Source of the DNA: an uncultured Clostridia bacterium
GTDB lineage: Bacteria; Bacillota; Clostridia; Christensenellales; CAAEEZ01
Length of the DNA stretch: 64,000 nt
Direction of reading: 5' to 3'
Assembly (NCBI GenBank): GCA_934365195.1
Contig: CAKRNA010000008.1
Location: 3,995-67,994, forward strand
Below, piece by piece: positions 1 through 18,609 of the stretch; the stretch's first letter is position 1, and each line of letters opens with the position of its first letter. The position numbers were made by a program, and so were the translations under genes. The notes beneath the pieces were generated by a model. It was not told the origin of the DNA. It saw only the letters and a program-made list of their open reading frames with translations, and did no database searches.

Positions 1-93
1 GACGACCAAGCAATCGTCCGTCGCAACTACACCAAAGAGCAACTTGCCGAGATGTTCCCGGAAATCGACAATTTCGACAATTTGGAATTTTAG
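1..93 (+). CDS. 3' end of an ORF that starts upstream of the window (ends ...EIDNFDNLEF*)
   Basis: Frame 1 is open from base 1 to TAG at 91-93. No recognisable motif. Confidence 0.4.
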   Translation, partial: DDQAIVRRNYTKEQLAEMFPEIDNFDNLEF

Positions 94-125
94 GAGGGCG
101 TAGCAAAAGCAATGGCGTTAAGTTG

Positions 126-219
126 GGGCTAGCAACGTAGCCAACAAGCAGCGTTGACAACCGGGGTTAAACAACGTGGTTAAAAATCTGGGCGCATTGC
201 TGCGTTAAATATCGAGGTC
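126..219 (+). repeat. Copy 1 of the conserved intergenic module (GGGCTAGCAACG leader plus 64-bp core GACAACCGGGGTTAAACAACGTGGTTAAAAATCTGGGCGCATTGCTGCGTTAAAxATCGAGGTC)
   Basis: The core at 156-219 is near-identical to 7033-7096 and 8266-8329. It lies directly upstream of the RBS of the 237 CDS. Confidence 0.85.
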
Positions 220-236
220 AAAAATAAGGAGGTAAT

Positions 237-713
237 ATGACACAAAAGAAAAACAAAAAGAAACACCTATCACTACTACAAACGCTTTTTCAACGAGCCA
301 AAAACAATAACATAGTAAATCCTATAATCGTCAATACAAAAAGACATAGAGATTCTCAAGGTAACCACCCGCACATCATTATTGAAGATATTGACGATAA
401 ACACATATCGGTAGGCTTATCAACTCATTCAAAAAAAGGAAAGAGTAAAAAAGCCGGTAATAATTATTCTTTAGATATCAATCCGCTATCACACGATACA
501 AGACACTCTTATATGCGTAGACAAGGTACGGTTGATAAAAAAAGAAATTATTTTCAATCAGAACTAGGAGTAATGTCTGAAAAAGATTATAAACAAGCAA
601 AACACTATGCGGACAATGCAAAAGTTAAATACCTAAATACAAATAAAAATAAAAAAAATAGTAACACAAGTCCAAAAACTCACACGAGTAATAAGACGGA
701 CTCAAATAACTAA
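237..713 (+). CDS. Lysine-rich basic protein, unknown function (distant paralog of 8373-8903)
   Basis: RBS AAGGAGG 7 nt upstream. K-rich N and C termini. The central HPHIIIEDIDDKHISVGLSTH core is reminiscent of the HHFALYKENGRIRAVRLTH core in 8373-8903. Confidence 0.6.
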   Translation: MTQKKNKKKHLSLLQTLFQRAKNNNIVNPIIVNTKRHRDSQGNHPHIIIEDIDDKHISVGLSTHSKKGKSKKAGNNYSLDINPLSHDTRHSYMRRQGTVDKKRNYFQSELGVMSEKDYKQAKHYADNAKVKYLNTNKNKKNSNTSPKTHTSNKTDSNN

Positions 714-841
714 GTCGGCGTTACTATCTATAAATAAAATATCAAATAATATCTACCGTTGTCAACTATTTAATTAAAAAATCTACGAATAGAAGACCTA
801 AAAAGAAAAATTGCTGGCGAGCAAAAACGCTGGAGGTAAAT

Positions 842-1045
842 ATGAAAATTCGTATTATGGGAACACCCGAAGAATTGAAAAGCGCTGAAACTTACTACAA
901 AGCGCTACGTAAACAGGATTACGTCAATTACGTAGAGATATCTAAGCCGTATCCAAACAGAAACGGCAGTCAATTAAGCAGACTTTACGTAGAAGTAATT
1001 TGCAAAGATTGTACACCTAATTCGCTTTTAATAAAGAGCGAATAA
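842..1045 (+). CDS. Small protein resembling the DUF3970-type family of Firmicute phages/plasmids (from memory)
   Basis: RBS GGAGG. The pattern MKIRIMGTPEEL...SKPYPNRNGSQLSRLYVEV matches the recalled family pattern xRLxGTxEE...S.PY.NRG.S...RVYxxV. Confidence 0.5.
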   Translation: MKIRIMGTPEELKSAETYYKALRKQDYVNYVEISKPYPNRNGSQLSRLYVEVICKDCTPNSLLIKSE

Positions 1046-1058
1046 AGGAGGTATTGAA

Positions 1059-1184
1059 ATGCTGACGATAATTCTTTTGCTTTTGCTAAGCGTAAACAAA
1101 AAAGACGAAATAAAAACGTACGGACACCGTGCGGACGACATTGATTTTCTACGAGGTGCTTATGGAAAGAATACTACTAGATAA
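1059..1184 (+). CDS. Possible 41-aa peptide with hydrophobic N-terminus (MLTIILLLLLSVNKK...)
   Basis: Very good RBS AAAGGAGGT 7 nt upstream of the ATG. It is below the ORF-track size cutoff and overlaps the next ORF out of frame. Confidence 0.3.
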   Translation: MLTIILLLLLSVNKKDEIKTYGHRADDIDFLRGAYGKNTTR

Positions 1185-1422
1185 AGTGGACTACTCTAAA
1201 GTAGTGAATTTACCGGAGTTTGAAGTGCTCGAGCCTACCTTTTACGCTCACGTAGAGTACAGCGCTCCGTTTAATATCTACTATGCAACGATTACGTTTG
1301 AGAACAACACCGAAAACAGCGGCGCTTTTCCTACGTTAAACAACAAAAAAGAGGCGCTGGACAAAGTTATTGCGTTCCTTAAAAACGAACGCTCTGAATA
1401 CGACAGAGGTTTATATGACTAA
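1162..1422 (+). CDS. Hypothetical protein (start moved to MERILLDK)
   Basis: ORF 1129-1422. The internal ATG at 1162 is preceded by GAGGTG. Confidence 0.5.
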   Translation: MERILLDKVDYSKVVNLPEFEVLEPTFYAHVEYSAPFNIYYATITFENNTENSGAFPTLNNKKEALDKVIAFLKNERSEYDRGLYD

Positions 1423-1609
1423 ACAAGATTTAATCAATACGAAATTTGAAATTGAAGAAAACTGCAAGGGCGCTTGTGCCGATTGCAACGTTAAAAGAAA
1501 ATGCGAGCGAGTGTATCAACGCTACAATCTATCTTTTTACAGCGCAAATGATATTAAAACGAACTTTGCACTTAACACAATAGACGAGGTGGGAAATGAA
1601 AGAAATTAA
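1415..1609 (+). CDS. Small Cys-rich protein (CKGACADCNVKRKC), unknown function
   Basis: ORF 1370-1609. The likely start is MTKQDL at 1415, after AGAGG. It overlaps the previous stop. Confidence 0.5.
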   Translation: MTKQDLINTKFEIEENCKGACADCNVKRKCERVYQRYNLSFYSANDIKTNFALNTIDEVGNERN

Positions 1610-1775
1610 AACTCACCTATATGAAATAACTAAAAAAGAGATAAAAGAACTTGACGAAGAAACTCAAGTATTAGTTTTTAACGCCTTTGATATTAAGTAT
1701 TACATTGAAAAACCTAGCAAGGCGCTTCTATACTCTGCTTCTTCCTGTTACTTTTTCCTTTTTGATAAAGAATAG
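1596..1775 (+). CDS. 59-aa hypothetical protein (MKEIKTHLYEITKKEIKELDEE...)
   Basis: ATG at 1596 preceded by GAGGTGGGA. It fills the gap to the next gene and is just under the ORF-track cutoff. Confidence 0.45.
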   Translation: MKEIKTHLYEITKKEIKELDEETQVLVFNAFDIKYYIEKPSKALLYSASSCYFFLFDKE

Positions 1776-1791
1776 CCAAAGGAGGTAAATT

Positions 1792-2181
1792 ATGGCAACA
1801 AAAAAACCGAGCAAACCAAAAGCAAAGCCACAAAAGGCTAAAAAGACAACTGCTAACCCACGGAATCCATACATACAAAACGATACTTTTTGGCGTGGGA
1901 TATTCCATTTTTTCGGCAACAAAAAAAGAACCGGCAAATATGGTTCTTCAAAGTTTGGAAAAAAATACACAGTCAACGCAACGACGCATTTGTCCAGGGA
2001 TAATGAAATAATCACCGCTACCGTTTACAATGCTAACGGCAAATTAGTTTCAACGCATAGCGGGACAGATTTAGTAGACGCTGTAAAACCCGCTCTTACT
2101 AAGGCAGGGCTTAAAGTTAAACCCTACAACCCATTTTATACTGAAAGAAAAAGGAGGAAGAAAAATGGCAAATCAAACTAG
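1792..2181 (+). CDS. Basic protein with K/P-rich N-terminus and KRRKK C-terminus, unknown function (possible nucleic-acid binder)
   Basis: RBS AAAGGAGGT. Composition only. Confidence 0.6.
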   Translation: MATKKPSKPKAKPQKAKKTTANPRNPYIQNDTFWRGIFHFFGNKKRTGKYGSSKFGKKYTVNATTHLSRDNEIITATVYNANGKLVSTHSGTDLVDAVKPALTKAGLKVKPYNPFYTERKRRKKNGKSN

Positions 2182-2950
2182 AAAAAACACTAAAGCAAGA
2201 ACTAGCGCTCCAACAGTGCAAAGGATATCAAAAGAAGAATTTAATAAACTACGTAAGCGTAGTATTCGCAATAAATTTATTGCCGGTATATGCACGTTTG
2301 TTTTAGGCGTTGGTGCCGGCGCAGGCGCATACTTCGGCATTAAATCCGCCGTGGATAAGAAAAACCCCGGCACGACTCCTCCACCTATACAGCAAGAGCA
2401 AGAAGTAACTAATAAAAACGTTCATTATTCTAGCACGAACGATATTATAGGCGAGGCTTCACAAACATATACCGACGAATATATTAAGTTTTGGAAAAAC
2501 TATGCACAAGAGTTTCACAAGGCGTATTTTGAGAAAGACGTCACGATAGAATTGCCTATAAATATTAGACTTTTCAAAGGCGTTAATCTCGGCGATGAAG
2601 AATATGTCGTGCCGATTGTTACCGAGTACGTGGGCACTATTAGTCTAGATAAGATAGTGGTTAGAGGTGCTTACCTTGATAATGAGTTATCTACAAGATT
2701 AAAAATAAGCGAAGAAGATATCGCTAAAATCTTCCCTGAAACCGCCGGGGCAAAAATACTTCAATGTATGGCATTAAACGGCGGTGAGCCGGAAGAGAAA
2801 GCGGGACTGGTATACAAGTTCGGTAACTACGTTTTATACGTTACTAACTTTAGAGAGTTGGACAAGTTACAAATCGAAATTGCTAGTTATAAAGACCAGT
2901 ACATTTCTAAAGAAATAACTGAGTTAGATTTCTCAGTAACGATAGCGTAA
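2165..2950 (+). CDS. Single-pass (N-in) membrane protein with basic cytoplasmic tail, (GA)n-containing TM and external domain
   Basis: TM segment FIAGICTFVLGVGAGAGAYFGIKSAVDKKNPG. Paralogous N-terminus to the next gene. Confidence 0.65.
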   Translation: MANQTRKNTKARTSAPTVQRISKEEFNKLRKRSIRNKFIAGICTFVLGVGAGAGAYFGIKSAVDKKNPGTTPPPIQQEQEVTNKNVHYSSTNDIIGEASQTYTDEYIKFWKNYAQEFHKAYFEKDVTIELPINIRLFKGVNLGDEEYVVPIVTEYVGTISLDKIVVRGAYLDNELSTRLKISEEDIAKIFPETAGAKILQCMALNGGEPEEKAGLVYKFGNYVLYVTNFRELDKLQIEIASYKDQYISKEITELDFSVTIA

Positions 2951-2959
2951 AGGTTAATA

Positions 2960-3592
2960 ATGAAAAAAGTAAAAAACAGCAAAACGAAACCCGCAACGTC
3001 GAAAAAAGTGCCGCATAAAAGAGGTATAAAAATATTTATAACAATCCTATGCGTTTTTGTATTAGGTGCCGGCGCCGGCGCCGGTGCGTTCTACGGCATT
3101 AAATCCGCCTTAAACAAAAAAACTGAAACGTACGTTGTAAATAATTTAAGAGTTAGTAAAGAAAACGCTATGAATTATTATGGAGTTACCTATATAGATA
3201 CTAACAATATGTACCCCGTTCCGTTTAATATCAATTTAACTTGTATAGATAAAACTAGAGGCGTTGTTACTAACGTCGTATTTGAAAATAGTATTGCTTT
3301 TACAATATATGAGGCTGACGGCGGATTTGTTGCTATTAACCTTAAAAAACTATTTAAAGAGAACAATATTGAACTTCCTACAAGGAGCGTAGGGGAAACG
3401 ATACATAAGTGGTGGAACTTAAAAGAACAGTATCTAGACGGGCACTTTTTCTACTTTTATGACGGAGGAGGATATAATATCTTCTCGGATAGTTTTTTTA
3501 AAGAAATAGAATTTACTGCTGACTTTGCTCTTTTAATCTATTCTATTTATTTAGGAAAAGCAAAAGATATGAATTTTACTATTTTAATTTAA
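2960..3592 (+). CDS. Single-pass membrane protein, N-terminal paralog of 2165-2950
   Basis: TM segment IFITILCVFVLGAGAGAGAFYGIKSALNKKTE, the same motif as the upstream gene. Confidence 0.65.
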   Translation: MKKVKNSKTKPATSKKVPHKRGIKIFITILCVFVLGAGAGAGAFYGIKSALNKKTETYVVNNLRVSKENAMNYYGVTYIDTNNMYPVPFNINLTCIDKTRGVVTNVVFENSIAFTIYEADGGFVAINLKKLFKENNIELPTRSVGETIHKWWNLKEQYLDGHFFYFYDGGGYNIFSDSFFKEIEFTADFALLIYSIYLGKAKDMNFTILI

Positions 3593-3605
3593 AAGGAGGA
3601 ATAAT

Positions 3606-4853
3606 ATGAAAAAAAGTACATATAAAACCGCCACTATAATAACAGTAATACTTTGCTTGTTCACGCTAGGTTTAGCGTGGACAAGTGACTGGTTTACTAA
3701 CTGGAATACGGCGGAATGGACGAAAAAGTGGGAGCAACTGTTCGGCAACGAACAATCTAAGCCTAACCCTACCCCACCGGGCGACGATACGCCTACTAAC
3801 CCGGGCACTCCTAAACCGCCCGTTGATAATGACGTTGTCGCTATATCGGGTAAAGGCGATAATATGCTAGCAGGCAAAACGTACGATATGGACAACTTTG
3901 CTTATGTTTGTTCTGAAAACTCTGTTAACAAAACAATAACGTTAAATGCTACAGTTGAACCCGAGAACGCTACAGATAAAAACAATATACGCTGGAAAGT
4001 CGAATGGGTAAATCCTAACGTAGGATTTGCAAACGGCAAAAAAGTAACCGATTATATCACTATCAAGCAAGATACCACTAATCCGGCAATATGCAAAGTT
4101 AGTTATCAACAAGATTTTGGAAGCAAAATTAAAGTAGTTGCTTATATATATACTAATCCTACCGTTAATGCCGAATGCACGGTCGATTGTGTCCAAAAAT
4201 TCATACATTTTAACGCCGACGGAGCAGTTCCTTTATTCGCTGATTTTAACGGAAATACTTTTCCTAAAAACGATACCGGTAGTAACGGTTATAATATATT
4301 TTTGGCAGCATATTTAATGTCTGTATATAATTTTGAAGATTATACTCCCGGGAAAGGTGGAATAAATGTTAATCCTGATGATTATAAAAATAAAAAAATA
4401 GGCTTCTTCTATAATCAATCAATAGGTACTATTTCAAACGATATAACTTCTGCTGAAATTACCTATGCGTTAACTCCTGAATTTAAACAGTTTATAGATA
4501 GCCAAGGTTGGACTTCGGAAGTATCTACATATACCATTTCGTTGAACACAAAATCTAACGATATTATCTACAATTATCCTGAGGGTAATATCTCGTATAA
4601 AACTATTTCTACAGAGAATACATACGTTACTATGAACGATATCTATAAAAAGTTTTTTAACGTTACTTCTAATAATGATTTAAAAGCAGTCTATGATTGG
4701 ATGAAAACGGAAGGCAATAAGGCTTTTACTGAAACGATTGTTTTTCACAATAATTTTGAAGATATAACTTTTAGTGATGTGATTAACCTTGATATTTATG
4801 TAGATATCCCAGCAACTAACATAAACATTGACCAAGGCAACATTAAAGTATGA
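3606..4853 (+). CDS. Membrane-anchored protein with Pro/Thr-rich linker and Ig-like-looking external domain(s)
   Basis: RBS AAGGAGGA. N-terminal TM followed by PNPTPPGDDTPTNPGTPKPP. The rest is unknown. Confidence 0.65.
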   Translation: MKKSTYKTATIITVILCLFTLGLAWTSDWFTNWNTAEWTKKWEQLFGNEQSKPNPTPPGDDTPTNPGTPKPPVDNDVVAISGKGDNMLAGKTYDMDNFAYVCSENSVNKTITLNATVEPENATDKNNIRWKVEWVNPNVGFANGKKVTDYITIKQDTTNPAICKVSYQQDFGSKIKVVAYIYTNPTVNAECTVDCVQKFIHFNADGAVPLFADFNGNTFPKNDTGSNGYNIFLAAYLMSVYNFEDYTPGKGGINVNPDDYKNKKIGFFYNQSIGTISNDITSAEITYALTPEFKQFIDSQGWTSEVSTYTISLNTKSNDIIYNYPEGNISYKTISTENTYVTMNDIYKKFFNVTSNNDLKAVYDWMKTEGNKAFTETIVFHNNFEDITFSDVINLDIYVDIPATNINIDQGNIKV

Positions 4854-4876
4854 TAACACTTATACTTCAATTCATA

Positions 4877-4963
4877 ATGCCTATTTTCATAGGTATTTTT
4901 GGAATTTTTACTGTTAGTTTACTTTACGTAGCAATACTTTTAGTTATTGCTAAATCAAAATGA
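4877..4963 (+). CDS. Possible 28-aa hydrophobic peptide MPIFIGIFGIFTVSLLYVAILLVIAKSK
   Basis: It fills the 4854-4972 gap as a single TM with a basic C-terminus. No convincing RBS. Confidence 0.25.
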   Translation: MPIFIGIFGIFTVSLLYVAILLVIAKSK

Positions 4964-4972
4964 GAGGTACTT

Positions 4973-6982
4973 ATGCAAAAGAAAAAACTATTAGTAGTAA
5001 TAACGTTGATATGCCTACTATCTACTATGTTAGTAGGCGCTACGTCTTTTGCGTTTGCTCAAGATAGTTTCGACACCTCTAACGTTATGGACGACCTGTC
5101 CACCGCTGACGGATTCAATCTTTTAGAATATCGTCCCGACAACCAAGGCGAATTAACGTTATGTAATTTTGTCGAGTATGGTTTTAATTATAAGCAAGAT
5201 AATTCCAACAATTATGGACTATATTTTTACGTGTACAATCCACGACTTATAGATTTTGACACTAAAACTAATCGTAATACAGTTTCGTTAGCAGTAACTA
5301 ACAATGGAATAACTAGCGAGTACAAAACCTACGAATTACAATTCTTAAGCAAATCGACGAAAAAAGATGATAACCAACTATATACAGATAACCTTTTTTA
5401 CAAATTTAAGGTAAAAAATGCAGAAGAAATATTAAAACTTGTAGACAAAAACGCCAGGATTTATAATATCGCTTCTATTGAATTGTTAACTAAAGGCTCT
5501 ACAACGTTGAAAGATTATCAAACCGGAGGAGTATATACTGTAACTGGTTATGCTAAAGGGCTAGGTAATGGCAATACAACTTCGTCTTTACATCAAACTA
5601 TTAGCGAACTTTTAACAATGGAACTTGAATGTCACACTACTTTTTTTAGAACGAATACGTCACCAAAAGGACGTTTTTACCAAAATCAAATAACAAGTAT
5701 GTACTTTGCTATACCAAACAAAATATTAGATACTTATGGCGGTGTTAATAAAATATACGCCCAAACGTATAAACAACGCAGCGCTCCGTTTATAGTAACT
5801 AAAGACAAAACCTTTTATAATAAATTAAAAAATTATCTAGGAGTTACTATGCCGATAGGAGGAGATAAAGACGTGGACGAATATTTAACGTCTTATTATA
5901 AAGAAGCAGTTGGAGGTACATACGTTTACGAATGGGGCTGGAATAACGGCAGGCTATGGGGAAGTGGTGAACCAACAAGTATTCCTCTACAAATAAAAAA
6001 TCGTCTAAGTTATCTTACCGGCGTTTTTTATACCGATAGTCCAGATATGTACGTGCCAGGTAAAGAAGTTATGAAAGAAATTTTTAACTACTCTGCTAGT
6101 TATAATAATGGCGAATGTTTTAATGGAGTGTCTAACGATTTACATAGTTCAACTTTAACTAAAGACCAAATGTATAAAAAATACATCGTCAGCGCCAACG
6201 ATAAAACCAACTTGTTAGACTATAACAGTACTCACAGTTGGTGGGACAAGTTAAACGATTATGGTTTAATCAATATTGGAACGCCAACAAACGAGGAATT
6301 TAAAAACGTAGAAGGTATTAGAACGGTATCTACTAAAGATATTATTAAAAACGTTACTGAACTATCAAAAAATCTTTTAGTTGCAGAGTGCGACGTAAAC
6401 AATTTATCCTCTTTTGTTATAAAAAATGAATTAGGTAATAAGACCACATATTTAATGCGTTTTGATTTCGACGACTACTATTCAATTCCTATGACTCACA
6501 AATATGAGGCAGGCAACGTATACGGCGCCGGAACGGCAGATACGTACCTATATCAAGAACCGCTCTTTTACGACTTACAAATTATCGAAGTTCAATTCTA
6601 CCGTGACGGCAAATACACTAATATCCCTGTAGTTTCCGACCCGACAAACTATGCCGGTGGTGGCACTAAACCTATAAATCCTAAATCGCTTTTAGAACTA
6701 ATTATTGATTGGTTAAAAAGAAACTGGAAATGGATATTACTAGCATTTATATGCTTGCTACTACTTCCGGTATTGCCTAACGTTATAGTTTTCGTGTTCA
6801 AAGTAGCCTTTGCGCTGATTAAATTACCTTTTATTTTAATTAGCAAAACGTTCTATGCGTTTAAAGAAAAGGCGGTTAAACGAGAACAGCAGCAAAACAT
6901 AAACGCCTTACAGTCTATTCAAGAACTGGAACGCTACGAGGAACGTCAAGCCCGGCGTGAAAGTATAATTAAGAAAAAATAA
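4973..6982 (+). CDS. Secreted 669-aa protein with cleavable-type signal peptide and C-terminal TM anchor plus charged coiled tail (the topology of a filamentous-phage g3p-type adsorption protein or an adhesin)
   Basis: The N-terminus MQKKKLLVVITLICLL...SFAFAQD and the C-terminal WKWILLAFICLLLLPVLPNVIVFVF. A hairpin CCCGGAC-N7-GTCCGGG lies just downstream. Confidence 0.7.
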   Translation: MQKKKLLVVITLICLLSTMLVGATSFAFAQDSFDTSNVMDDLSTADGFNLLEYRPDNQGELTLCNFVEYGFNYKQDNSNNYGLYFYVYNPRLIDFDTKTNRNTVSLAVTNNGITSEYKTYELQFLSKSTKKDDNQLYTDNLFYKFKVKNAEEILKLVDKNARIYNIASIELLTKGSTTLKDYQTGGVYTVTGYAKGLGNGNTTSSLHQTISELLTMELECHTTFFRTNTSPKGRFYQNQITSMYFAIPNKILDTYGGVNKIYAQTYKQRSAPFIVTKDKTFYNKLKNYLGVTMPIGGDKDVDEYLTSYYKEAVGGTYVYEWGWNNGRLWGSGEPTSIPLQIKNRLSYLTGVFYTDSPDMYVPGKEVMKEIFNYSASYNNGECFNGVSNDLHSSTLTKDQMYKKYIVSANDKTNLLDYNSTHSWWDKLNDYGLINIGTPTNEEFKNVEGIRTVSTKDIIKNVTELSKNLLVAECDVNNLSSFVIKNELGNKTTYLMRFDFDDYYSIPMTHKYEAGNVYGAGTADTYLYQEPLFYDLQIIEVQFYRDGKYTNIPVVSDPTNYAGGGTKPINPKSLLELIIDWLKRNWKWILLAFICLLLLPVLPNVIVFVFKVAFALIKLPFILISKTFYAFKEKAVKREQQQNINALQSIQELERYEERQARRESIIKKK

Positions 6983-7015
6983 ATAACAAGTTGTTTCCCC
7001 GGACAGTTAACGTCC

Positions 7016-7160
7016 GGGCTAGCAACGGTATCGACAACCGGGGTTAAACAACGTGGTTAAAAATCTGGGCGCATTGCTGCGTTAAACATCGAGGTCAGCA
7101 TACGTAGTCAATCTACGTTGTCAAAAAACGAGGAATACTATGAAAAATAATACTAAAAAA
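7016..7160 (+). repeat. Copy 2 of the intergenic module, extended form: 64-bp core, ACGTAG-N5-CTACGT palindrome, RBS, ATG and the first 7 codons (MKNNTKK)
   Basis: 7081-7160 differs from 8314-8393 at only 2 positions. Confidence 0.9.
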
Positions 7161-8249
7161 ATAAATAAAAAAAAGAAACCACAAAACGTTTTTCTAATAA
7201 AAACGCTAATACTTTTGTCAGTTTTATTTATAGTTTTATCAACTACTCTGTTTGGTGTGCTATATGGACTGCGAAACTTGATTTTTAAGCCACAGCCTCT
7301 ACCCCCACCTGAAACTCCCGTTGAAACTATAAGTGATTTAAAAAAATGCTATTTAGGAAACAGAAATAATTACGTCGAAATGCCGGATAAGAGTATAAAA
7401 TTTGTTATTAACGTAGACGGCGATTATAGGGTTGTTAAAGGCAATTTACCGTATGACAAGACGATGAATAACGATTTTTTAGCCTATGATTTTAGCATTA
7501 TATATCCGGACTTAAAAGAGTGTACGTTATTACATTACAACGCTTTTGGTAATTATAACGTTCCAAATGGTTCGGTTCACTTTTTACCATATACCCAACC
7601 GAAAGAAGAAACTTACCAACTATTTTTAAACATAGAAAATAATGAAAGTACTGTTTATGAGGGTAACTACGAACCTAATGTTGAACTAATCTATTTTAAA
7701 AGCGATGAAAAATATATTGAAGAAGCAGTTAGAAACATACGTCCTATTATAAAACCTGAAGGGAGCGTTCCACCTGTTGAATATATCATTGAGCCTACCC
7801 GCTTTAATAATAGTTGGCACGAAAAAAATATAAACGAAGATTTTTTTATCCCCACAGAAGCAGATGAAGGCGGATATATTCGTTGCCACTTTTTTTACAA
7901 AGGTGAGCACGTATATACTACAATAGGAATGCCTTTTGCCGGGTGGCAAGGTACTAATTTAATTTTTCCACACCACTATAATATCGATAAACGTAAATTT
8001 TTGCCCGACGACGGTTTTGTTTTTAAGGGGAAATTAAGATATTGCACGAATATCGGATATAAATATTATACCTTTAATTTTGATAAACATAATGACCAAC
8101 CTTCTGCCGTTGGTGTATATCAATTAACTTATGAAGGAGTAATAGGCGACGACGGAACACCACGCTTACGTGTTAAACGTTTTTTTGGTCCGGAGTATAC
8201 AAAAATGGAAAACAATTCTTATTCGGATATATGCTTCTTCTATTTTTAA
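7140..8249 (+). CDS. Single-pass membrane protein (K-rich tail, TM, 300-aa external domain), unknown function
   Basis: MKNNTKKINKKKKPQNVFLIKTLILLSVLFIVL.... The start lies inside repeat copy 2. Confidence 0.65.
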   Translation: MKNNTKKINKKKKPQNVFLIKTLILLSVLFIVLSTTLFGVLYGLRNLIFKPQPLPPPETPVETISDLKKCYLGNRNNYVEMPDKSIKFVINVDGDYRVVKGNLPYDKTMNNDFLAYDFSIIYPDLKECTLLHYNAFGNYNVPNGSVHFLPYTQPKEETYQLFLNIENNESTVYEGNYEPNVELIYFKSDEKYIEEAVRNIRPIIKPEGSVPPVEYIIEPTRFNNSWHEKNINEDFFIPTEADEGGYIRCHFFYKGEHVYTTIGMPFAGWQGTNLIFPHHYNIDKRKFLPDDGFVFKGKLRYCTNIGYKYYTFNFDKHNDQPSAVGVYQLTYEGVIGDDGTPRLRVKRFFGPEYTKMENNSYSDICFFYF

Positions 8250-8258
8250 CACACGCAC

Positions 8259-8393
8259 CGGTATCGACAACCAGGGTTAAACAACGTGGTTATAAAGCAG
8301 GGCGCATTGCTGCGTTAAACATCGAGGTCTACATACGTAGTCAATCTACGTTGTCAAAAAACGAGGAATACTATGAAAAATAATACTAAAAAA
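8259..8393 (+). repeat. Copy 3 of the intergenic module, extended form including ATG and 7 codons
   Basis: See copy 2. The core is at 8266-8329. Confidence 0.9.
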
Positions 8394-8903
8394 CCAAATA
8401 ATAAAACATACAAAAAGAAAAACAGCAAAAATACCGGCAAACAACGAACTATAAATAATTCGTTGTTTCGTCGGTGGTTAGCAAGGTTACGAATACATAA
8501 GCCGGTTAAGGAAGCGACAAGGAATAATCTGTTTAAAAACGATAACGATATGTATTTTGCAACGATTAAAGACGGATATATTATCCCAAAATCCAAAAAC
8601 CGCAATATCCACCATTTTGCCTTATATAAGGAAAATGGACGAATACGTGCAGTACGTCTAACTCATTTATACGAACCTGACAAAGTAAAAAAACTTGAAA
8701 ATAACCGCTTAAAAGAATTAAAAATTCCTACTTTTAAGTATCCTAGTGGGTATTTAGACAGTTATAAAGATAAAACTATTAACAATAAAAATATAAACCC
8801 AATGGATTCCAAGCACATTACTTCAATAAAAGACAACGTTTTTACTGAAAAGCAAAAAAGAGAAATTAGAAAATTTGTAAAATATAAAGATAATTACAAA
8901 TAA
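8373..8903 (+). CDS. Lysine-rich basic protein, distant paralog of 237-713
   Basis: It has the same MKNNTKK start as 7140. The core is HHFALYKENGRIRAVRLTH. Confidence 0.6.
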   Translation: MKNNTKKPNNKTYKKKNSKNTGKQRTINNSLFRRWLARLRIHKPVKEATRNNLFKNDNDMYFATIKDGYIIPKSKNRNIHHFALYKENGRIRAVRLTHLYEPDKVKKLENNRLKELKIPTFKYPSGYLDSYKDKTINNKNINPMDSKHITSIKDNVFTEKQKREIRKFVKYKDNYK

Positions 8904-9016
8904 AAAAATAGCACCGCCACTTGTGTAAGCCCAAAGTCAGACACGGGGGTGCTAATAAAGGTTAAACCTTTTCTCCATTTTTATTATACACAATAAATAG
9001 GAGGAAAGTCAACAAA

Positions 9017-10489
9017 ATGAACGAAATTACAAGAAAAAACTTAAAACGTACTCGTAGATATCGCAGTATTTCCACGTATATTGCGCTGTTTAACCTTTTA
9101 ATTGCTATTGCGGTTACTGTTCCCGGCGTTATGAATAAGTCGCTTACCTGGGCAAGTGGCACAGTTATATACGCTATCATAAGTCTTATCTTTATGATAG
9201 GTAGCCTCGGCTATCTAGCGCCCTACTTCATACTTAAACACAAGGTCAACAACACGCCGTACAAGGTAAATTCTTTACTTGTGCCGATTAAAGAGAAGTA
9301 TGCCCCGCCAAGAACCGGTAAAAGTAGCAGTATGTATCTTGAGGCGCAATTTATACAGCCTGTTTTAGAGTTTCAACTTAGGTACGACTACTGGTATTAC
9401 AAAAATCATATCGAAAAATGGACTAAAGAGGGCAAAACCGACAAACTAATCAAGTGGGAAGTAATAAAAGCCTCGTATGAGTTTTGGGCAAGCCACGATT
9501 ACGCCTGGTGCGTAATGAGTTCATTGCCTTGTACGTACAAAGGCAAACAAGTTTTACAACTTAAAAAAGGACACCTATTACAACAAATATGGGCGCCTCG
9601 TTACACTTTATGGCTTATAGACGAAGCAGGCAAGTTTATGCCCCAACAATCTTTTGAAAACAAGATTACTGCCCTAGTGGACACTTACCGTGAGATAGGA
9701 CACTTTAAGTTTTGGTGTGTTTACTGCGAGCAACGTCAAGATAATATACAAATAGACGTAAGGTGTATGACACAATTAACTCAATGTATGCAAGGTCAAA
9801 AGAACTTTTGTAAACCGCATTTAATAGAACACTATTATAACCGATTACAAAGCAAAGCAATACTGCCTAAAAACGAAAATAACGTAGCCCTAGCGCTTAA
9901 ACTTGAACGGCTTAAGAATTATATTGACAGCATAGGTTTTCGTGTGTGGTACTCTACAATATGGCAATCAAACGGCAAAGAATTTACTAGCACTAAACTT
10001 ACGCTTTACTGGACACAAAATTTAGATTTTGACTATGATAACGAGTGTATGTTCGTAGCCTACAAGGCTGAACCTGACACCGTTAAAGAAAACGTTGCGT
10101 GGGAAAATACGTTGCTTACCAGGGAACAAGCGGACGAATTTTTTGCTCCGTACAAAAAACCGGACAAAAACGAGAGTTTAACTACTGAAGAACGCATTAA
10201 AAAACTTATTCCGGCGCTGAATTTTGACGTAGAACTGCCAAAAGATATAAACGTAGGGTTATTGCTTACCGAAATAAATAAATCCGACCTAGTTAAACGT
10301 TGGAAGAATTTGAGCGTAATACTAAAACATTACGACGAAATAACGTCGGGTAAGTATCGAAACAAGTCGGAAGAGGAAATTGCTGAAATCTGCAAGCAAA
10401 AAAACCGAGAAAAAGCAAAATCGGAAAAAGTAGTGCAATCAATAGAGCCGTCAGACGAAGACGACGGCGAAGTGCATTGCTTTGATTAG
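9017..10489 (+). CDS. Membrane-associated P-loop NTPase, Zot / filamentous-phage pI-like (tentative)
   Basis: There are two N-terminal TM helices. Walker A is APPRTGKS. Walker B LWLIDEAGKF is followed by YREIGHFKFWCVYCEQRQDNI, which resembles the Zot pattern FIDECGxxWP ... hRHhGWDIxxxTQ. Family assignment is from memory only. Confidence 0.5.
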   Translation: MNEITRKNLKRTRRYRSISTYIALFNLLIAIAVTVPGVMNKSLTWASGTVIYAIISLIFMIGSLGYLAPYFILKHKVNNTPYKVNSLLVPIKEKYAPPRTGKSSSMYLEAQFIQPVLEFQLRYDYWYYKNHIEKWTKEGKTDKLIKWEVIKASYEFWASHDYAWCVMSSLPCTYKGKQVLQLKKGHLLQQIWAPRYTLWLIDEAGKFMPQQSFENKITALVDTYREIGHFKFWCVYCEQRQDNIQIDVRCMTQLTQCMQGQKNFCKPHLIEHYYNRLQSKAILPKNENNVALALKLERLKNYIDSIGFRVWYSTIWQSNGKEFTSTKLTLYWTQNLDFDYDNECMFVAYKAEPDTVKENVAWENTLLTREQADEFFAPYKKPDKNESLTTEERIKKLIPALNFDVELPKDINVGLLLTEINKSDLVKRWKNLSVILKHYDEITSGKYRNKSEEEIAEICKQKNREKAKSEKVVQSIEPSDEDDGEVHCFD

Positions 10490-10504
10490 GCTTTATTAAG
10501 CCAC

Positions 10505-10640
10505 AGTCGGCTTGCCGACTATAAAAATACTGCCGGGGGGCATAGGGGGGACAAGTCCCCCCTAAGTTACCCGGCATTATATAAATTCTCCCAACCGCTT
10601 TATGAAAAGGTGTCGGGAAAACGGCGAATTTATAATTCGC
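10505..10640 (+). other. Cluster of perfect GC-rich hairpins in the non-coding right arm of the element
   Basis: AGTCGGC-TT-GCCGACT at 10505-10520. A nested hairpin TGCCGGG..AGGGGGGAC-AA-GTCCCCCCT..CCCGGCA at 10531-10576. GCGAATT-TAT-AATTCGC at 10624-10640. Confidence 0.8.
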
Positions 10641-10778
10641 TGTTGTCCTGACCGCTTTTTTATGCAAAAATTTATGAATTTTTGAGGGAATTTTTGACGT
10701 TAAACAGCAGCGTTGAGTTCCTGGGCTAACAACGGTGCCGTTCAGCGCCGCCACCGTCCTGGGCTATGCACCGGAATA

Positions 10779-10850
10779 GACAACCGGGGTTAAACAACGT
10801 GGTTAAAAATCGAAGTTAATCAACGTAGTCAAACTACGTGGTTTTTATAA
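10779..10850 (+). repeat. Copy 4 (partial) of the intergenic module, with a variant palindrome ACGTAGT-CAA-ACTACGT and no gene downstream
   Basis: 10779-10811 is identical to the first 33 nt of the core. Degenerate GGGCTA / GTTAAAC pieces occur at 10696-10778. Confidence 0.8.
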
Positions 10851-10938
10851 TAAAAAAGGCTACCGCTTTGGTAACCTTTAAAATTTGATAATGAGTGTCA
10901 AAATGAGTGTATATCTTGATTTTACTTACTTTTTAAAC

Positions 10939-10983
10939 CTGTTAACCGCAGGGTCGTTGGTTCGAGTCCAACTTGGGGAGCCA
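10939..10983 (+). other. Displaced 3' half of tRNA-Asn(GTT), from the anticodon loop to CCA; putative attR of the left element
   Basis: The fragment reads CTGTTAA CCGCA GGGTC GTTGG TTCGAGT CCAAC TTGGGGA G CCA. There is no matching 5' acceptor or D-arm upstream. Confidence 0.75.
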
Positions 10984-10987
10984 AAAG

Positions 10988-11019
10988 GGTAATTTTTAAC
11001 GAAATTACCCTATTTTTTT
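10988..11019 (+). terminator. Rho-independent terminator of the former tRNA-Asn gene
   Basis: GGGTAATTT-N5-AAATTACCC followed by a T7 run. Confidence 0.7.
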
Positions 11020-11090
11020 GCAATTTTTCCTTGTTTTTCGCTCCCTTTTATAGCGTTTTACCGCTAAAAAACCTAATTTTTTTGATTAGT

Positions 11091-11122
11091 GGTGTCAAAA
11101 TCGGTGTCAATTTTGGTGTCAA
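11091..11122 (+). repeat. Three exact GGTGTCAA direct repeats with 12-bp period
   Basis: The repeats start at 11091, 11103 and 11115. Two related GAGTGT(C/A)A units with the same 12-bp period lie at 10893-10915, on the other side of the tRNA fragment. Confidence 0.8.
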
Positions 11123-11296
11123 AAAGCACATTTTTTGCTTATCTTTTTTTTATTTTTTTAATATTGAAGTTTTAAAAATGCTAGGATAATGCAAAACGCA
11201 ACTAATTACCCACCTAATAAAAAATACGATAACCATAATATCGTTACAAAAATCTAAAATATTTAATAAATAAAAAAACCGAAACAAGCCGTTTGC

Positions 11297-11581
11297 TTAT
11301 TTCAGATTTTTCACAAGTTGTAATAATGCTTTTTTATTTTCGTTTGAAAGCAGCCTTACTCTTCTTATAAGTTCGTCTTCGCCTTCCTCTTCGCTAAAAA
11401 ACTCGGATAAAGTAATCCCAAATGCACCGCAAATCGCTCTTAACGTGGAAATTTTAGGCTCGCTTTTCCTTGAATATAGATTATTTAGAGTGGACTGAGT
11501 AAGCCCGCTCTCCATAGCAAGATAATTTATGGACCAGCCTCTCTCTTTTCTTAATACTTCAATTTTTTCAAGTACTTCCAT
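11297..11581 (-). CDS. XRE-family helix-turn-helix transcriptional regulator
   Basis: Cro/C1-type HTH: RKERGWSINYLAMESGLTQSTLNNLYSRKSEPKISTLRAICGAFGITLSEFF. Confidence 0.8.
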   Translation of the reverse strand: MEVLEKIEVLRKERGWSINYLAMESGLTQSTLNNLYSRKSEPKISTLRAICGAFGITLSEFFSEEEGEDELIRRVRLLSNENKKALLQLVKNLK

Positions 11582-11918: not shown

Positions 11919-12791
11919 ATGTACGGGGACAAAATATCACAATTAAGAAAAGAAGCAAATTTAACACAAGGTCAACTTGGTAATTTACTTAATGTAAGTG
12001 CTCAGGCAGTTTCAAAGTGGGAAAATAATTTATCAGAACCAGACCTTGCAACTGTAAAAAGGATTGCTAGTATATTTAATATATCTATTGATGAATTTCT
12101 AGATATCAAAATAGATAGCAACGTAGATGAAGAGACAACCAGTGTACAACAAAATAAAGAAGTTAGTGATGCAATTGCAAATGCTGTTACGGAAATAAAA
12201 GAAGATGTTATTGGGTATTGCACAAATTGTGGAACAAAGGTAACAAAAGACAATGTTGGAGTTACTAGTCCAAAAATTTTATGTAAAAAGTGTGCCGAAG
12301 AAGTAAGGCTAGAAGAAGATAAAAAAGAACGAGCAAAAGAGACGGCAAGACTAAATAAAAAGCAAGATTTAAGGACTAGAAAAAAGAAGAGCATTATTAA
12401 AGGTAGTATTGTAGCTGTATTAGTTTTTGTATTTGGTATGATGGTTACATTTGCAGATACTTCAGATGCCGCAGGTACAGTAGGCTTATTCTTTTTCTTC
12501 TTGTTTGTAACTTATGGAAGCTATGCTTTTACCGCAGAAATTGTTCTTGATAAAGGACCTATTGGCGATATATTATTATGGTTTGTTTCAAGGCCACTTC
12601 GTATGCCTGGTGTTATCTTTACACTTGATTTAAGTGGATTGTTTTTCTTGATATTTGTAAAACTAGGGCTTACAGTACTTAGTTTTATGTTAGGTGCATT
12701 ATTGTTTTTAGTGGGAGTATTTGTAGGCTTAATTGTTGCACCATTTTCGTTCCCATTTACAATACATAAAGTTAATAAAGAATTAAAATAA
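11919..12791 (+). CDS. Membrane-bound regulator: XRE HTH, zinc ribbon (CTNCG...CKKC) and a C-terminal multi-TM domain
   Basis: N-terminal HTH_3 motif LRKEANLTQGQLGNLLNVSAQAVSKWEN. A CxxC...CxxC pair. About 4 hydrophobic helices at the C-terminus. Confidence 0.75.
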   Translation: MYGDKISQLRKEANLTQGQLGNLLNVSAQAVSKWENNLSEPDLATVKRIASIFNISIDEFLDIKIDSNVDEETTSVQQNKEVSDAIANAVTEIKEDVIGYCTNCGTKVTKDNVGVTSPKILCKKCAEEVRLEEDKKERAKETARLNKKQDLRTRKKKSIIKGSIVAVLVFVFGMMVTFADTSDAAGTVGLFFFFLFVTYGSYAFTAEIVLDKGPIGDILLWFVSRPLRMPGVIFTLDLSGLFFLIFVKLGLTVLSFMLGALLFLVGVFVGLIVAPFSFPFTIHKVNKELK

Positions 12792-16268: not shown

Positions 16269-18593
16269 TTATACCTTTTGGAGTATTGTGTATAAATCAA
16301 TTATACTGTTTCTTTTTTGTTCTTCTTCGTCATTGTCAAATTGGTGCGCTGGGGAGTTGTATTCTTCTCTCTTAAGGTCAAGTTCCTTAAATAAATCTAA
16401 TCCAAGGCAACCTGTATCTTTTAGCCAATTTAACAACTCGTGAAGTTGGGTGTAATTAAAATTCGCAGTTCTTATTTCATATGCAAAATGGTATTCTAAA
16501 TGTTTTTGCATTAAAGTACGCGCATCCACTTCATTATAAGAGTGAGAAGTGCCATCCATGAAAGTAACCATAGAATGAATTGCTGATTGGTAATCGTCCA
16601 TCAACAAAGGTTCATTTTTGGGATCGATTTTTTTCAAATCATTTGTTGTCGGACCGTGGGTTATTTTTATTAAGGTAGGATTATCGTGATATGTTAATTG
16701 AACTGCTTTTTTATAGAAGTTTTGATAGTGAGTTGTAATAATTATTTGAGCAACGGAATCCTTTAATTTTTTTACTTCATTGATGAAAATATTCATTCTA
16801 TCAATATCAAAACTTGTGATAGGGTCATCTAAAAAAATAATTGTTTCACCCGATGCTGTTCTTTTTATTTTGGTGAAAAATATTGCTAATGCCAACGCTC
16901 GCCTATCCGATTCGCTTAATACAAATTGTATTTTATCTTTCGGTACTAACTCGCCTCTAAAATAAACATCAAGTGAGTAGGTTTTGTTTGTTCCTTTGGT
17001 GGTAATAACCTTTTCGATTTTATAATTCCTACTACCAAATTTTTCGAAATAAGCATTAATATCATCATAGAATTCGGTTAAGTAGGATTCTTGTTCTTTG
17101 TCAAAATCTTGCTTTTTTTGCTTAGACTGATTTGCTATATCAGTAATTTGTTTTTTTAGTAAAACAAATTGTTGAATTTTATCGTTAAGCAAATTACGCT
17201 GGACAATGATAAATAATCGGTTGTATTCATTCTCTAGTTCAATTATGTGTTTATTTATTGAATCTGCTGTTAGGTTGGCAATGTATGCGCCCGCTAATGT
17301 ATTAAATTCCTGTAATAGGGTGTTATATTGTTTTATATTTTCGTTATATGCTTTAATGGTGTTGTAAAAACTTTGCAAATCAAATGCTTCAATCGAAGTA
17401 TAAAAGTTGTCAAATTTATTTTTAATTTTTACTTCCATTGTTTCGATTAGTGTTTTAAGGCTCTTTTCGCAATTTTCATAATTAGATATAAGAATTTCTC
17501 TTGCGTCAAGCAATGAATGGTATAAAGTTGAAACCTTTTCATCGAAAACCTTTGAATTAATTGTCGCAATTAAATCTTCATTTTGTATTAATTTTGTTGG
17601 ATTAATATTTAATTTTGTTGGAAACTTAATTTTATTGAGTGATAATACCTTTTGGGTATATTCTTGTATTTCCTTGCTAAAAAATTCAATAAAAACATCG
17701 ATGCTTTCATTTCCAGTTAAGGAGGTACCACAAAAAGGACAATGTTCGTCAACAATCCATTGTGTTCCTTGTAAAATCCAATTGTCTATTGCAACTGAAT
17801 CTGATGAATTTATATAAGTGTTTTTATGATTATTATATAATTCAATTAAATCTTGTTTTTGAAAAGAATATGCACTGGCTAGTATTTTATTTATATCATT
17901 AATTACGGAAAATATATTTATATCAATGGGAAGCAAAGCAGTTGGGAATGCTAAATTTTTAATAGCAGAAATATTTTTCAAGTTTTTTGTTTCTTCTTGT
18001 ATTGTCGTTTTTATTCCCAATAACGCAACATCTTCATCGTGAATATCTGCTTGATATGGCGCTTTTATAAAGTCTTTCAATGGAAGTTTTTTTTCGATTG
18101 CACGTTCAATATCTTCGGTAAGGGAATCATATTTACGAGTAAGCTCATTTTTTTGTTCGTTTAATGCCAATAATTCTCTTGATAAATTTACGCTTTTCTC
18201 ACCAATAATAAAGCGAGTAAAGTTTTCTTTATTTTTATGCTCTATTGCATTATTTGTAAATACATTATCAAAAACAAAAGCGGTATCAAAAACCTCTATA
18301 TTTGACATGTCGCCCAACCCTGGGTCTATACACCACAAACCTCTTTGAAATTTTGCATTTTTACCATTTGAAAAATTGAATGATACAGTCGGTTGTTCAG
18401 TCTGTCCAACAGTTTTTCTTTGAGTAATATAAATGGGGTCGTTATTCTTAAGCGATTTAATGACGTCACATATAGTTGTTTTTCCTTGTGAATTTGGTCC
18501 ATACATCAGTACTAGTTTTGATAATTCAATTGACGCCGGGCGAGAACTTAAAAATGTCCCAATGTTTTTTATCTCTTGTATCCTACTAATCAT
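16269..18593 (-). CDS. RloC/PrrC-like AAA_13-type ABC ATPase with long coiled-coil insert, CxxC zinc hook and C-terminal R...NxxxH region; putative defence ATPase or anticodon-nuclease-like protein
   Basis: The N-terminus IKNIGTF...LVLMYGPNSQGKTT carries Walker A. CPFCG sits mid-way in a ~500-aa helical insert. The signature-like LSESDRRAL and Walker B IIFLDDPITSFD follow. The C-terminus reads ARTLMQKHLEYHF...EEYNSPAHQF. The 774-aa size is similar to RloC. Family assignment is from memory. Confidence 0.55.
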   Translation of the reverse strand: MISRIQEIKNIGTFLSSRPASIELSKLVLMYGPNSQGKTTICDVIKSLKNNDPIYITQRKTVGQTEQPTVSFNFSNGKNAKFQRGLWCIDPGLGDMSNIEVFDTAFVFDNVFTNNAIEHKNKENFTRFIIGEKSVNLSRELLALNEQKNELTRKYDSLTEDIERAIEKKLPLKDFIKAPYQADIHDEDVALLGIKTTIQEETKNLKNISAIKNLAFPTALLPIDINIFSVINDINKILASAYSFQKQDLIELYNNHKNTYINSSDSVAIDNWILQGTQWIVDEHCPFCGTSLTGNESIDVFIEFFSKEIQEYTQKVLSLNKIKFPTKLNINPTKLIQNEDLIATINSKVFDEKVSTLYHSLLDAREILISNYENCEKSLKTLIETMEVKIKNKFDNFYTSIEAFDLQSFYNTIKAYNENIKQYNTLLQEFNTLAGAYIANLTADSINKHIIELENEYNRLFIIVQRNLLNDKIQQFVLLKKQITDIANQSKQKKQDFDKEQESYLTEFYDDINAYFEKFGSRNYKIEKVITTKGTNKTYSLDVYFRGELVPKDKIQFVLSESDRRALALAIFFTKIKRTASGETIIFLDDPITSFDIDRMNIFINEVKKLKDSVAQIIITTHYQNFYKKAVQLTYHDNPTLIKITHGPTTNDLKKIDPKNEPLLMDDYQSAIHSMVTFMDGTSHSYNEVDARTLMQKHLEYHFAYEIRTANFNYTQLHELLNWLKDTGCLGLDLFKELDLKREEYNSPAHQFDNDEEEQKRNSIIDLYTILQKV

Positions 18594-18609
18594 GCTCTTC
18601 CTCGTTTTT

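Follow-up and report, generated by a model that had tools for sequence, protein, structure and literature searches.

The stretch of DNA analyzed here (the window) comprises 64,000 nucleotides of contig CAKRNA010000008.1 (assembly GCA_934365195.1, forward strand, positions 3,995 to 67,994) from an uncultured Clostridia bacterium of the Christensenellales. Its first 11 kb form the right part of an integrated element, which is probably an apparently intact 15-kb prophage of a divergent, inovirus-like lineage of gut Clostridia that is extruded without lysis. An initial annotation of positions 1-10983 had suggested a cryptic inovirus-like prophage ending at a tRNA-Asn half-site, and had named three findings that would speak against this idea, namely tailed-phage or type IV secretion system (T4SS) genes upstream of the window, an ATPase clustering with conjugative coupling proteins, and no intact tRNA-Asn at the other end. 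All three points came out in favor of the inovirus-like interpretation, which is supported overall.

An element integrated at tRNA-Asn

The upstream 10 kb (L001) were taken from a public 422-kb metagenome scaffold that contains the window, where window position x is L001 position x + 9764. The element is 14,968 bp long and is delimited by a perfect 113-bp direct repeat (L001 5735-5847 and window 10939-11051). Its left 4,030 bp contain attL within an intact tRNA-Asn, a tyrosine integrase, an XRE repressor, a second helix-turn-helix (HTH) protein, a 101-amino-acid (aa) basic protein and a 274-aa putative initiator. Tailed-phage or T4SS genes were not found in this upstream 4 kb, which contains the tRNA-Asn, the integrase, two XRE-type regulators, small open reading frames (ORFs) and the 274-aa protein. 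The intact tRNA-Asn(GTT) (L001 5704-5779), ~15 kb left of attR, adjoins the integrase gene (L001 5886-6986, minus strand; PF00589 match 2.5e-19); both had been proposed as features to look for. Islands that tyrosine recombinases insert into tRNA genes have this arrangement, an integrase next to the undisrupted tRNA and, at the opposite end, a direct repeat of the tRNA's 3′ portion. ARAGORN called no tRNA at the right end, where the sequence is the 3′ half of tRNA-Asn. Because of the perfect repeat, the intact tRNA-Asn and the integrase, the integrated-element status of the stretch is proven, and integration is assigned, from the sequence, to the tyrosine integrase acting on the tRNA-Asn 3′ half. 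The half-site described by the initial annotation is thus a real attR repeat, but the element ends at 11051 and not at 10983.

A TTGACA-17-TATATT promoter that lies between the gene of the XRE repressor and the rightward operon is overlapped by three operator-like repeats (TGTACAAAAAATGTRYA type; L001 7500-7590, window -2264 to -2174). This arrangement of repressor, repeats and promoter has the apparent layout of a classical lysogeny switch, and the XRE/CI-type repressor with its adjoining repeats is read as a CI-type switch. The host flank encodes Spo0A and a SipL-like protein; given Spo0A, the host is a Clostridia-type Firmicute.

The remainder of the element is one long rightward operon for small basic proteins, five membrane-anchored ectodomain proteins and a Zot/pI-family ATPase. 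The tightly packed, co-directional ORFs noted initially, with strong ribosome-binding sites (RBS), are borne out: 15 such ORFs occupy 237-10489 of the + strand, nearly all with a Shine-Dalgarno match, and gene calls on the public scaffold independently agree with them. The element and its coding features in the window are as follows.

1..11051, + strand: integrated element, right 11 kb (the left 4,030 bp, L001 5735-9764, lie outside the window)
237..713, + strand: 158-aa very basic soluble protein with a PemK/MazF-like 'HPxIIxD...GLTHS' motif; candidate DNA-binding protein
842..1775, + strand: five small ORFs (67, 41, 86, 64 and 59 aa), three of them conserved in the relative L005
1792..2181, + strand: 129-aa lysine/arginine-rich protein
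2165..3592, + strand: two paralogous membrane proteins (261 and 210 aa), each with a basic N-terminal tail, one transmembrane (TM) helix with a GAGAGAGA motif and an external domain
3606..4853, + strand: 415-aa signal-anchored protein, homolog of the 351-aa Ser/Thr-rich external protein of related elements
4850..4963, + strand: 37-aa fully hydrophobic ORF with C-terminal KSK, immediately 5′ of the 669-aa gene
4973..6982, + strand: 669-aa protein with signal peptide, beta-rich ectodomain, C-terminal TM anchor and charged helical tail; hallmark of the element family
7140..8249, + strand: 369-aa membrane protein with a basic N-terminal tail, one TM helix and an external domain; present in L004, absent from L005 and L006
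8373..8903, + strand: 176-aa basic PemK-like paralog
9017..10489, + strand: 490-aa membrane-anchored P-loop ATPase, Zot/pI-like family (profile searches, motifs)

Six consecutive products (261, 210, 415, 37, 669 and 369 aa) carry an N-terminal signal/anchor helix, exactly as first noticed. Searches of Pfam, PHROGs and NCBIfam with the element's ORFs likewise confirmed that they lack capsid, portal, terminase, tail, relaxase and T4SS (VirB4) matches, and also returned no lysis genes and none of the small terminase or capsid-remodeling genes of satellites resembling phage-inducible chromosomal islands (PICI). PADLOC found no defense-system match in the element.

The membrane-anchored ATPase

The 490-aa ATPase has two TM helices, both N-terminal (residues 21-39 and 50-68, by hydrophobicity), a Walker A motif (APPRTGKS, residues 96-103), a Walker B motif (LWLIDE, residues 198-203) and a further motif, RE..GHF...CEQRQD..ID.R. 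Among 5.8 billion clustered proteins, close homologs numbered only three (70-84% identity), and a repeat search of that set with an 80-sequence alignment returned these three alone. HMMER, run exhaustively over 1.84 billion representatives, retrieved 128 distant relatives at ~20% identity (E down to 2e-29), which have the motifs GxPGxGKTS, hhhhDE and FRxxRHF...TEQD...IDxRR in common.

When 80 members of this family were scanned against Pfam one by one, 23 matched Zot (PF05707; best 5e-9), the sole recurring family, and no recurrent match to FtsK/SpoIIIE, VirD4, VirB4, TcpA, HerA, terminase or relaxase was observed across the 80. P0005, the distant relative closest to the window's subfamily (E 2e-29), scored 25.8 bits against Zot, compared with a curated cut-off of 20.3, over profile positions 2-145. 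In addition, M13 gene I ranked first when the family profile was compared with all ORFs of M13, B5, MV-L1 and L2, and hhalign of the family against M13 pI gave a probability of 72% (E 3e-5). These profile comparisons place the ATPases with Zot/pI at the family level, as the initial annotation had suspected from a membrane P-loop NTPase recalling Zot/pI, and the ATPases of this lineage lie at or past the detection limit of the Zot models. The absence of coupling-protein, FtsK or VirB4 matches also speaks against the grouping with coupling proteins that had been named as a counter-indication.

The N-terminal position of the TM helices had been counted against this assignment. This objection falls because genuine pI-like proteins may have one or two TM domains at either end, so that two N-terminal helices fit the criterion used for such proteins (Roux et al. 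2019, PMC6813254). A PDB sequence search with the ATPase gave generic P-loop matches only (E above 0.05), and an AlphaFold2 (AF2) model built on a four-sequence alignment reached a predicted local distance difference test (pLDDT) score of 40.6 and was not used. The close-homolog alignment found no loci in IMG/VR or GTDB genomes, and tblastn found no match in 50,697 GenBank phage records or in the 72,556 plasmids of PLSDB.

In contrast to the variable 100 residues before it, the C-terminal nonapeptide of the ATPase, DDGEVHCFD (window 10463-10489), is the same in all four close homologs and could be a docking motif.

The 669-aa protein and its family of elements

In the 669-aa protein, hydrophobic helices lie at residues 6-24 and ~585-606, in agreement with an AF2 model (113 sequences; pLDDT 86.8) that has helices at 2-20 and 585-668, a beta-rich ectodomain and a long C-terminal helix; the signal peptide and C-terminal anchor recognized initially are therefore upheld. 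The model has no fold match in the PDB, and the protein is a candidate adsorption or tip protein. More than 366 clusters contain homologs, which align over the full length at ~30% identity and lack both Pfam domains and informative names. Scanning GTDB with one genome for each species yielded 361 loci, with hosts among Clostridia, Christensenellaceae, Christensenellales, Eubacteriales, Lachnospiraceae, the isolate Pumilibacter intestinalis and others, from gut and rumen. The same method found no member in IMG/VR, and tblastn of the 669-aa protein found none in the same phage and plasmid collections. By these comparisons the lineage is new, since its proteins match nothing in phage, viral-contig or plasmid collections, and the 669-aa family is widespread but unannotated. 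The cryptic inovirus-like kind itself is already known, and secretion has been demonstrated for examples from gut Clostridia (Roux et al. 2019, PMC6813254; Burckhardt et al. 2023, PMC10061712).

In the close relatives (L004-L007), the gene order is 260-aa, 210-aa, ~400-aa, ~665-aa, (366-aa), small basic protein and ATPase. For the wider family, 80 of the 361 loci were kept (L026-L105) and the ORFs of 78 were clustered. Their conserved core consists of small basic proteins, one to three copies of the 351-aa protein, a 195-aa anchored protein, the 669-family gene and, in 40 of the 78 loci, a TM ORF of 31-57 aa (MKTVKRIIAVLLLIV..VGYLIFTGS) whose start lies no more than 16 nt from the stop codon of the 669-family gene. 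The core further includes a 709-aa multi-TM protein whose P-loop is deviant and which shares its RH...TDEQR...DxR signature with the ATPase, as well as a 342-aa protein whose FVTFTY, HFHGLFY and YLLKYIEK are the three motifs of HUH rolling-circle initiators; the cluster representative scanned matches PF23343 REP_ORF2-G2P (3e-11). Among the 40 loci with enough downstream sequence, 36 encode the multi-TM P-loop protein and 32 a G2P/ORF2-type HUH Rep, and another branch (L018-L021) encodes a Rep_OBD plus superfamily 3 (SF3) helicase Rep. Given these Reps, the wider family that holds the window's structural genes would mostly replicate like single-stranded DNA (ssDNA) phages. Relatives are flanked by CI-like S24 repressors and serine or tyrosine integrases, and some carry Flg_new cell-surface repeats. 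The loci of the distant ATPase family are similarly bordered by host genes at one end and, at the opposite end, by a recombinase (tyrosine or serine) together with an HTH or S24 repressor.

The 415-aa protein links the window's element to this core, as it matches the hidden Markov model (HMM) of the 351-aa family (cluster 2) with an E of 1.2e-31, has tblastn matches in L004-L007 and L011, and belongs with a Ser/Thr-rich external protein of which most related elements encode one to three. The 37-aa ORF is the element's only candidate with a major-coat-like appearance; a second short ORF, of 41 aa (1059-1184), is like it in not being conserved in L004-L006. The 274-aa protein (L001 9033-9857) has a winged-helix-like N-terminal domain and a C-terminal domain, with a perfect tandem peptide repeat between them (DQGNKSIL twice, then DQGNKNAL). 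Its C-terminal half is 46% identical to an L005 protein, and it showed no HUH motif and no family match in Pfam, PHROGs or NCBIfam. The sequence makes the element distinctive in that a structural module appears joined to a replication module not of the rolling-circle replication (RCR) type, at a size of 15 kb.

Three very basic paralogs of 101, 158 and 176 aa (L001 7794-8099, window 237-713 and 8373-8903) have a PemK/MazF-like core, 'HPxIIxD...GLTHS...NPL', in common and possibly bind DNA. A member of this family lies between the 669-family gene and the ATPase gene in L004-L006, L010 and L019, and that of L019 matches PemK_toxin weakly (E 0.002). The HPHIII sequence of the 158-aa protein was considered as an HUH motif and rejected, as the paralogs do not have it and the family looks PemK-like.

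Non-coding arm and repeated modules

The 450 nt 3′ of the ATPase gene fold far better than shuffled sequences on both strands (z -6.5 and -6.8). Three hairpins lie here, as reported initially, followed by repeats and attR; only the 6-bp stem is perfect, and the two long hairpins are imperfect composites. The non-coding features, including the repeated modules further upstream, are as follows.

145..296, + strand: repeated module copy 1, ~150 nt, core GACAACCGGGGTTAAACAACGTGGTTAAAAATC, 5′ of the 158-aa gene
7022..7173, + strand: repeated module copy 2, taking in the RBS and first 11 codons of the 369-aa gene
8255..8406, + strand: repeated module copy 3, 93% identical to copy 2, taking in the start of the 176-aa gene
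10505..10520, + strand: short GC-rich hairpin with a perfect 6-bp stem, directly past the ATPase stop codon
10527..10580, + strand: hairpin A, long GC-rich imperfect composite, kept in L004, L005 and L007; 9 of 19 pairs with compensatory changes
10605..10672, + strand: hairpin B, long imperfect composite (10605-10659) followed by a T-run, conserved in L004, L005 and L007
10768..10843, + strand: repeated module partial copy 4, with 13-nt-spaced repeats GTTAAACAACGTG / GTTAATCAACGTA / GTCAAACTACGTG
10890..10911, + strand: ATGAGTGTCAAAATGAGTGT repeats adjoining attR; two more occurrences of the motif lie near attL, within the 3′-terminal part of the integrase gene
10939..11051, + strand: attR, a perfect 113-bp copy of the tRNA-Asn 3′ half (anticodon loop to CCA), a terminator hairpin and ~40 bp more

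Covariation of the hairpins was assessed on four sequences (window, L004, L005 and L007). In hairpins A and B together, 89.5% of cells were paired, compared with 47-57% in slid controls, and 11 of the 38 pairs had changed on both sides, nine of them in hairpin A. The G-T pairs indicate that the structure forms on the + strand. The simplest reading of hairpin B is as terminator of the long operon. No T-run follows hairpin A, which is a candidate packaging or origin signal because its position mirrors that of the Ff packaging signal; an RNA role for it is equally possible. No Rfam family was matched in the arm.

Besides GTTAAACAACGTGG and a small hairpin (ACGTAGTCAATCTACGT), the repeated module takes in the RBS and the opening 11 codons (MKNNTKK...) of the genes for the 369-aa and 176-aa proteins. 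Eight copies of its 14-mer GTTAAACAACGTGG lie in the element; the number expected for the 64-kb window is 0.33. The module could serve as an internal promoter or operator or as an origin array, or could mark cassette junctions, and the array of partial copy 4 is a candidate origin or regulator-binding array. A promoter scan was uninformative (43 sites, 38 expected). The 369-aa gene is bracketed by module copies, and it is this gene that is absent from L005 and L006.

At the ends of the element, the ATGAGTGTCAAAATGAGTGT repeats beside attR are candidate arm-type sites of the integrase, and ATGAGTGTCAAA repeats on the flanks of both att sites look like integrase arm sites. From the att sequences, the junction expected at attP is a right arm ending ...CTTACTTTTTAAAC, the 113-bp core and TTATTTTTAACGATT....

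Just beyond attR lie three GGTGTCAA repeats (11090-11124) resembling the integrase-proximal ATGAGTGTCAAA repeats, and the region from 11052 to about 11600 contains an XRE gene (11297-11581, minus strand), followed by a gene for an HTH-plus-TM protein (11919-12791). Together they may be the remnant of a second element once present at the same tRNA-Asn site. Further into the host flank, past a tRNA-Arg, an AAA_13 ATPase (774 aa), a 245-aa protein and a DNA cytosine methylase are encoded on the minus strand (window ~16270-20490, L002 17253-21473), a group that looks like a defense or restriction-modification islet beside an integration hotspot.

Assembly, relatives and alternatives

The gene order of the element, (37-aa TM ORF), 669-aa anchored protein, small proteins, ATPase and structured non-coding arm, parallels gVIII-gIII-gVI-gI-IG of M13 and Orf5-Orf8 of Propionibacterium phage B5. 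With Ff phages, it has in common, beyond this collinear order and a hairpin-rich non-coding region after the assembly genes, a Walker A, Walker B and downstream R-H...Q...R signature that align with M13 gene I (PF05707) in the hhalign comparison above. Unlike them, it has no secretin (none is needed) and no gII, gV or gVIII homologs, its TM helices precede the ATPase domain, and it carries an integrase and a CI-type switch. Also comparable are the Gram-positive inoviruses (phage B5 of the Paulinoviridae, and Enterocloster/Clostridium prophages), with monoderm Firmicutes or Actinobacteria as hosts, integration flanked by direct repeats, a Zot/pI-like ATPase as the sole recognizable morphogenesis gene, no lysis genes and, in Orf3-Orf8 of B5, the order small TM proteins, large anchored protein, small protein and ATPase. 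An Enterocloster prophage of 16 kb has been reported (Roux et al. 2019, PMC6813254; Burckhardt et al. 2023, PMC10061712). The element differs from this group in having no detectable similarity to any deposited phage, an ATPase anchored by N-terminal rather than C-terminal helices, five large ectodomain proteins, a length of 15 kb and no RCR Rep, and the pI-like Orf8 of B5 aligns weakly with the ATPase family profile (hhalign 5.4%).

Acholeplasma virus L2 (Plasmaviridae) resembles the element as a temperate virus of ~12-15 kb that integrates into a tRNA and codes nearly all its genes on one strand. Its ORF1 (591 aa, C-terminal anchor), ORF2 (small TM) and ORF3 (N-terminal TM, PGGGKS, DE) follow the order of large anchored, small TM and N-terminally anchored P-loop protein, and ORF1 is the best viral fold match of the 669-aa model (Foldseek, BFVD; E 5e-4). 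L2 differs in its wall-less host and its enveloped double-stranded DNA (dsDNA) vesicle, the element's relatives being located in Clostridia, Christensenellales and Eubacteriales genomes. Kinship with L2, raised by Foldseek, gained no statistical support from hmmsearch, phmmer, hhalign or Pfam and is kept as a lead; homologs of L2 ORF1, ORF3, ORF13 and ORF14 were not found in the element with hmmsearch, phmmer or hhalign. L2 ORF3 (L022 2278-3216), annotated as hypothetical, has an N-terminal hydrophobic region, PGGGKS and hhhhDE and is preceded by the two-TM ORF2 and the C-terminally anchored ORF1; by these motifs it appears to be a membrane-anchored P-loop NTPase of the same layout as the element's ATPase. 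The Dehalococcoides IME1 elements, proposed to be non-lytic (bioRxiv 10.64898/2026.09.15.751708), are likened by description only: they too are integrated and without tailed-phage hallmarks, with a pI-like ATPase, several small TM or signal-peptide proteins, a tyrosine recombinase and a lambda-like repressor, but measure 21-28 kb, occur in Chloroflexota only and use primase-helicase replication.

Under the preferred reading of a non-lytic, inovirus-like prophage, derepression would be followed by excision, and the circular genome would replicate, probably from the repeated GTTAAACAACGTG array through the 274-aa winged-helix-like protein. The structural proteins would enter the cytoplasmic membrane with their basic ends inside, and a multimer of the ATPase would thread the DNA through the membrane during coating, releasing particles without lysis and with the 669-aa anchored protein as putative tip or adsorption protein. 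Hairpin A, directly 3′ of the ATPase gene at an Ff-like position, would be the best candidate for the packaging or origin signal. A filamentous virion with circular ssDNA and non-lytic release is, indirectly, consistent with the absence of lysis genes and with the + strand hairpins.

Several observations weigh against this reading. At 15 kb and with five large ectodomain proteins, the element is atypical compared with characterized inoviruses (~4-11 kb). The caveats of the initial annotation, no clear coat ORF and no Rep, still hold: no conserved major-coat gene was found in the element, and the 37-aa candidate is absent from the closest relatives L004-L006, where its flanking genes abut. An RCR Rep, which had been named as a feature to look for upstream, was not found in the element by profile searches, which included the Rep types of the relatives; the G2P/ORF2-type Rep occurs in relatives only, and the sole initiator candidate is the 274-aa protein. 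Taken alone, the window ATPase reaches an E of 0.056 against Zot, short of Pfam's threshold, and its Zot/pI membership is therefore transitive, family-level evidence, while the 709-aa ATPase-like protein of the main lineage is weakly linked to it (hhalign 5.6%). Finally, no family member is known in IMG/VR or GenBank phages, and a terminal-overlap test for circular or episomal contigs found none among 39 whole-contig loci.

Some of these observations would suit a temperate, non-lytic virus with a dsDNA budding or enveloped particle, plasmavirus-like or IME1-like, in which the ectodomain proteins would form the envelope, the basic proteins condense the DNA and the Zot-like ATPase drive assembly or packaging. 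A winged-helix-like initiator candidate with repeat arrays and no RCR Rep suggests theta-type dsDNA replication, five membrane proteins have basic cytoplasmic tails, and at least four soluble proteins are very basic. The parallels with L2 point the same way, and the IME1 elements with their pI-like ATPase have been proposed as dsDNA budding viruses (bioRxiv 10.64898/2026.09.15.751708). The L2 links are, however, not significant (TM-score 0.12-0.14; hhalign 0.2% for ORF1 and 7.5% for ORF3; no HMM match), most relatives have HUH Reps of the ssDNA-phage type, and the hosts are walled, spore-forming Clostridia, with Spo0A in the flank. To our knowledge, no enveloped phage is known for such hosts, and we regard a dsDNA particle of this kind as unlikely.

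Still less probable are the two remaining explanations. One holds that the element is non-viral, an integrative mobilizable or conjugative (IME/ICE-like) element or a cell-surface island, whose ATPase translocates DNA or protein and whose secreted proteins are adhesins. An integrase, a tRNA att site and a repressor module are indeed generic to genomic islands, N-terminal TM topology also occurs in coupling proteins, some relatives carry the Flg_new repeats and viral databases hold no member; yet neither the 80 ATPase family members nor their neighboring genes match relaxase, FtsK/SpoIIIE, VirD4, VirB4 or TcpA, none of the 72,556 plasmids gave a match, and the ATPase family matches Zot alone, with relatives that carry phage-type Reps and CI/S24 repressors. 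The other takes the element for a defective or domesticated phage remnant, unable to replicate or to form particles, which would account for the missing Rep type of most relatives, the lack of a conserved coat gene and the lack of episomal contigs among the 39 whole-contig loci. Speaking against decay, the two 113-bp att copies do not differ, neither the integrase, the repressor nor any other of the ~20 tightly packed ORFs is disrupted, and identical element proteins occur on 6-8 contigs from different samples. Moreover, relatives at 70-84% identity keep the synteny, and the hairpins through compensatory changes, which argues for purifying selection; we consider a remnant as improbable as a non-viral island.

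Phages of the inovirus type influence biofilm formation, virulence and interactions with the immune system, and they mostly escape standard virus-detection tools. The 669-aa protein provides a new detection marker, and the ATPase a second, very divergent pI-like type for detection. The swapping of replication modules (HUH G2P-type, HUH plus SF3 helicase, winged-helix) bears on the relationship between ssDNA filamentous and dsDNA budding viruses. Tentatively, and with rather low probability, the element may stand for a large unrecognized lineage of non-lytic, membrane-assembled viruses of gut Clostridia, in which one sub-branch swapped its RCR Rep for a winged-helix initiator and repeats and may package dsDNA in a non-filamentous particle, bridging inoviruses and plasmavirus-like or budding viruses in walled Firmicutes. 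A cultured carrier of a related element, Pumilibacter intestinalis CLA-AA-M10 (L045), makes the prediction experimentally testable. As the hallmark family occurs widely across Christensenellales, Eubacteriales and further gut Clostridia but has no member in IMG/VR, GenBank phages or PLSDB, virome studies may be failing to count an entire clade of gut phages with a chronic, non-lytic lifestyle.

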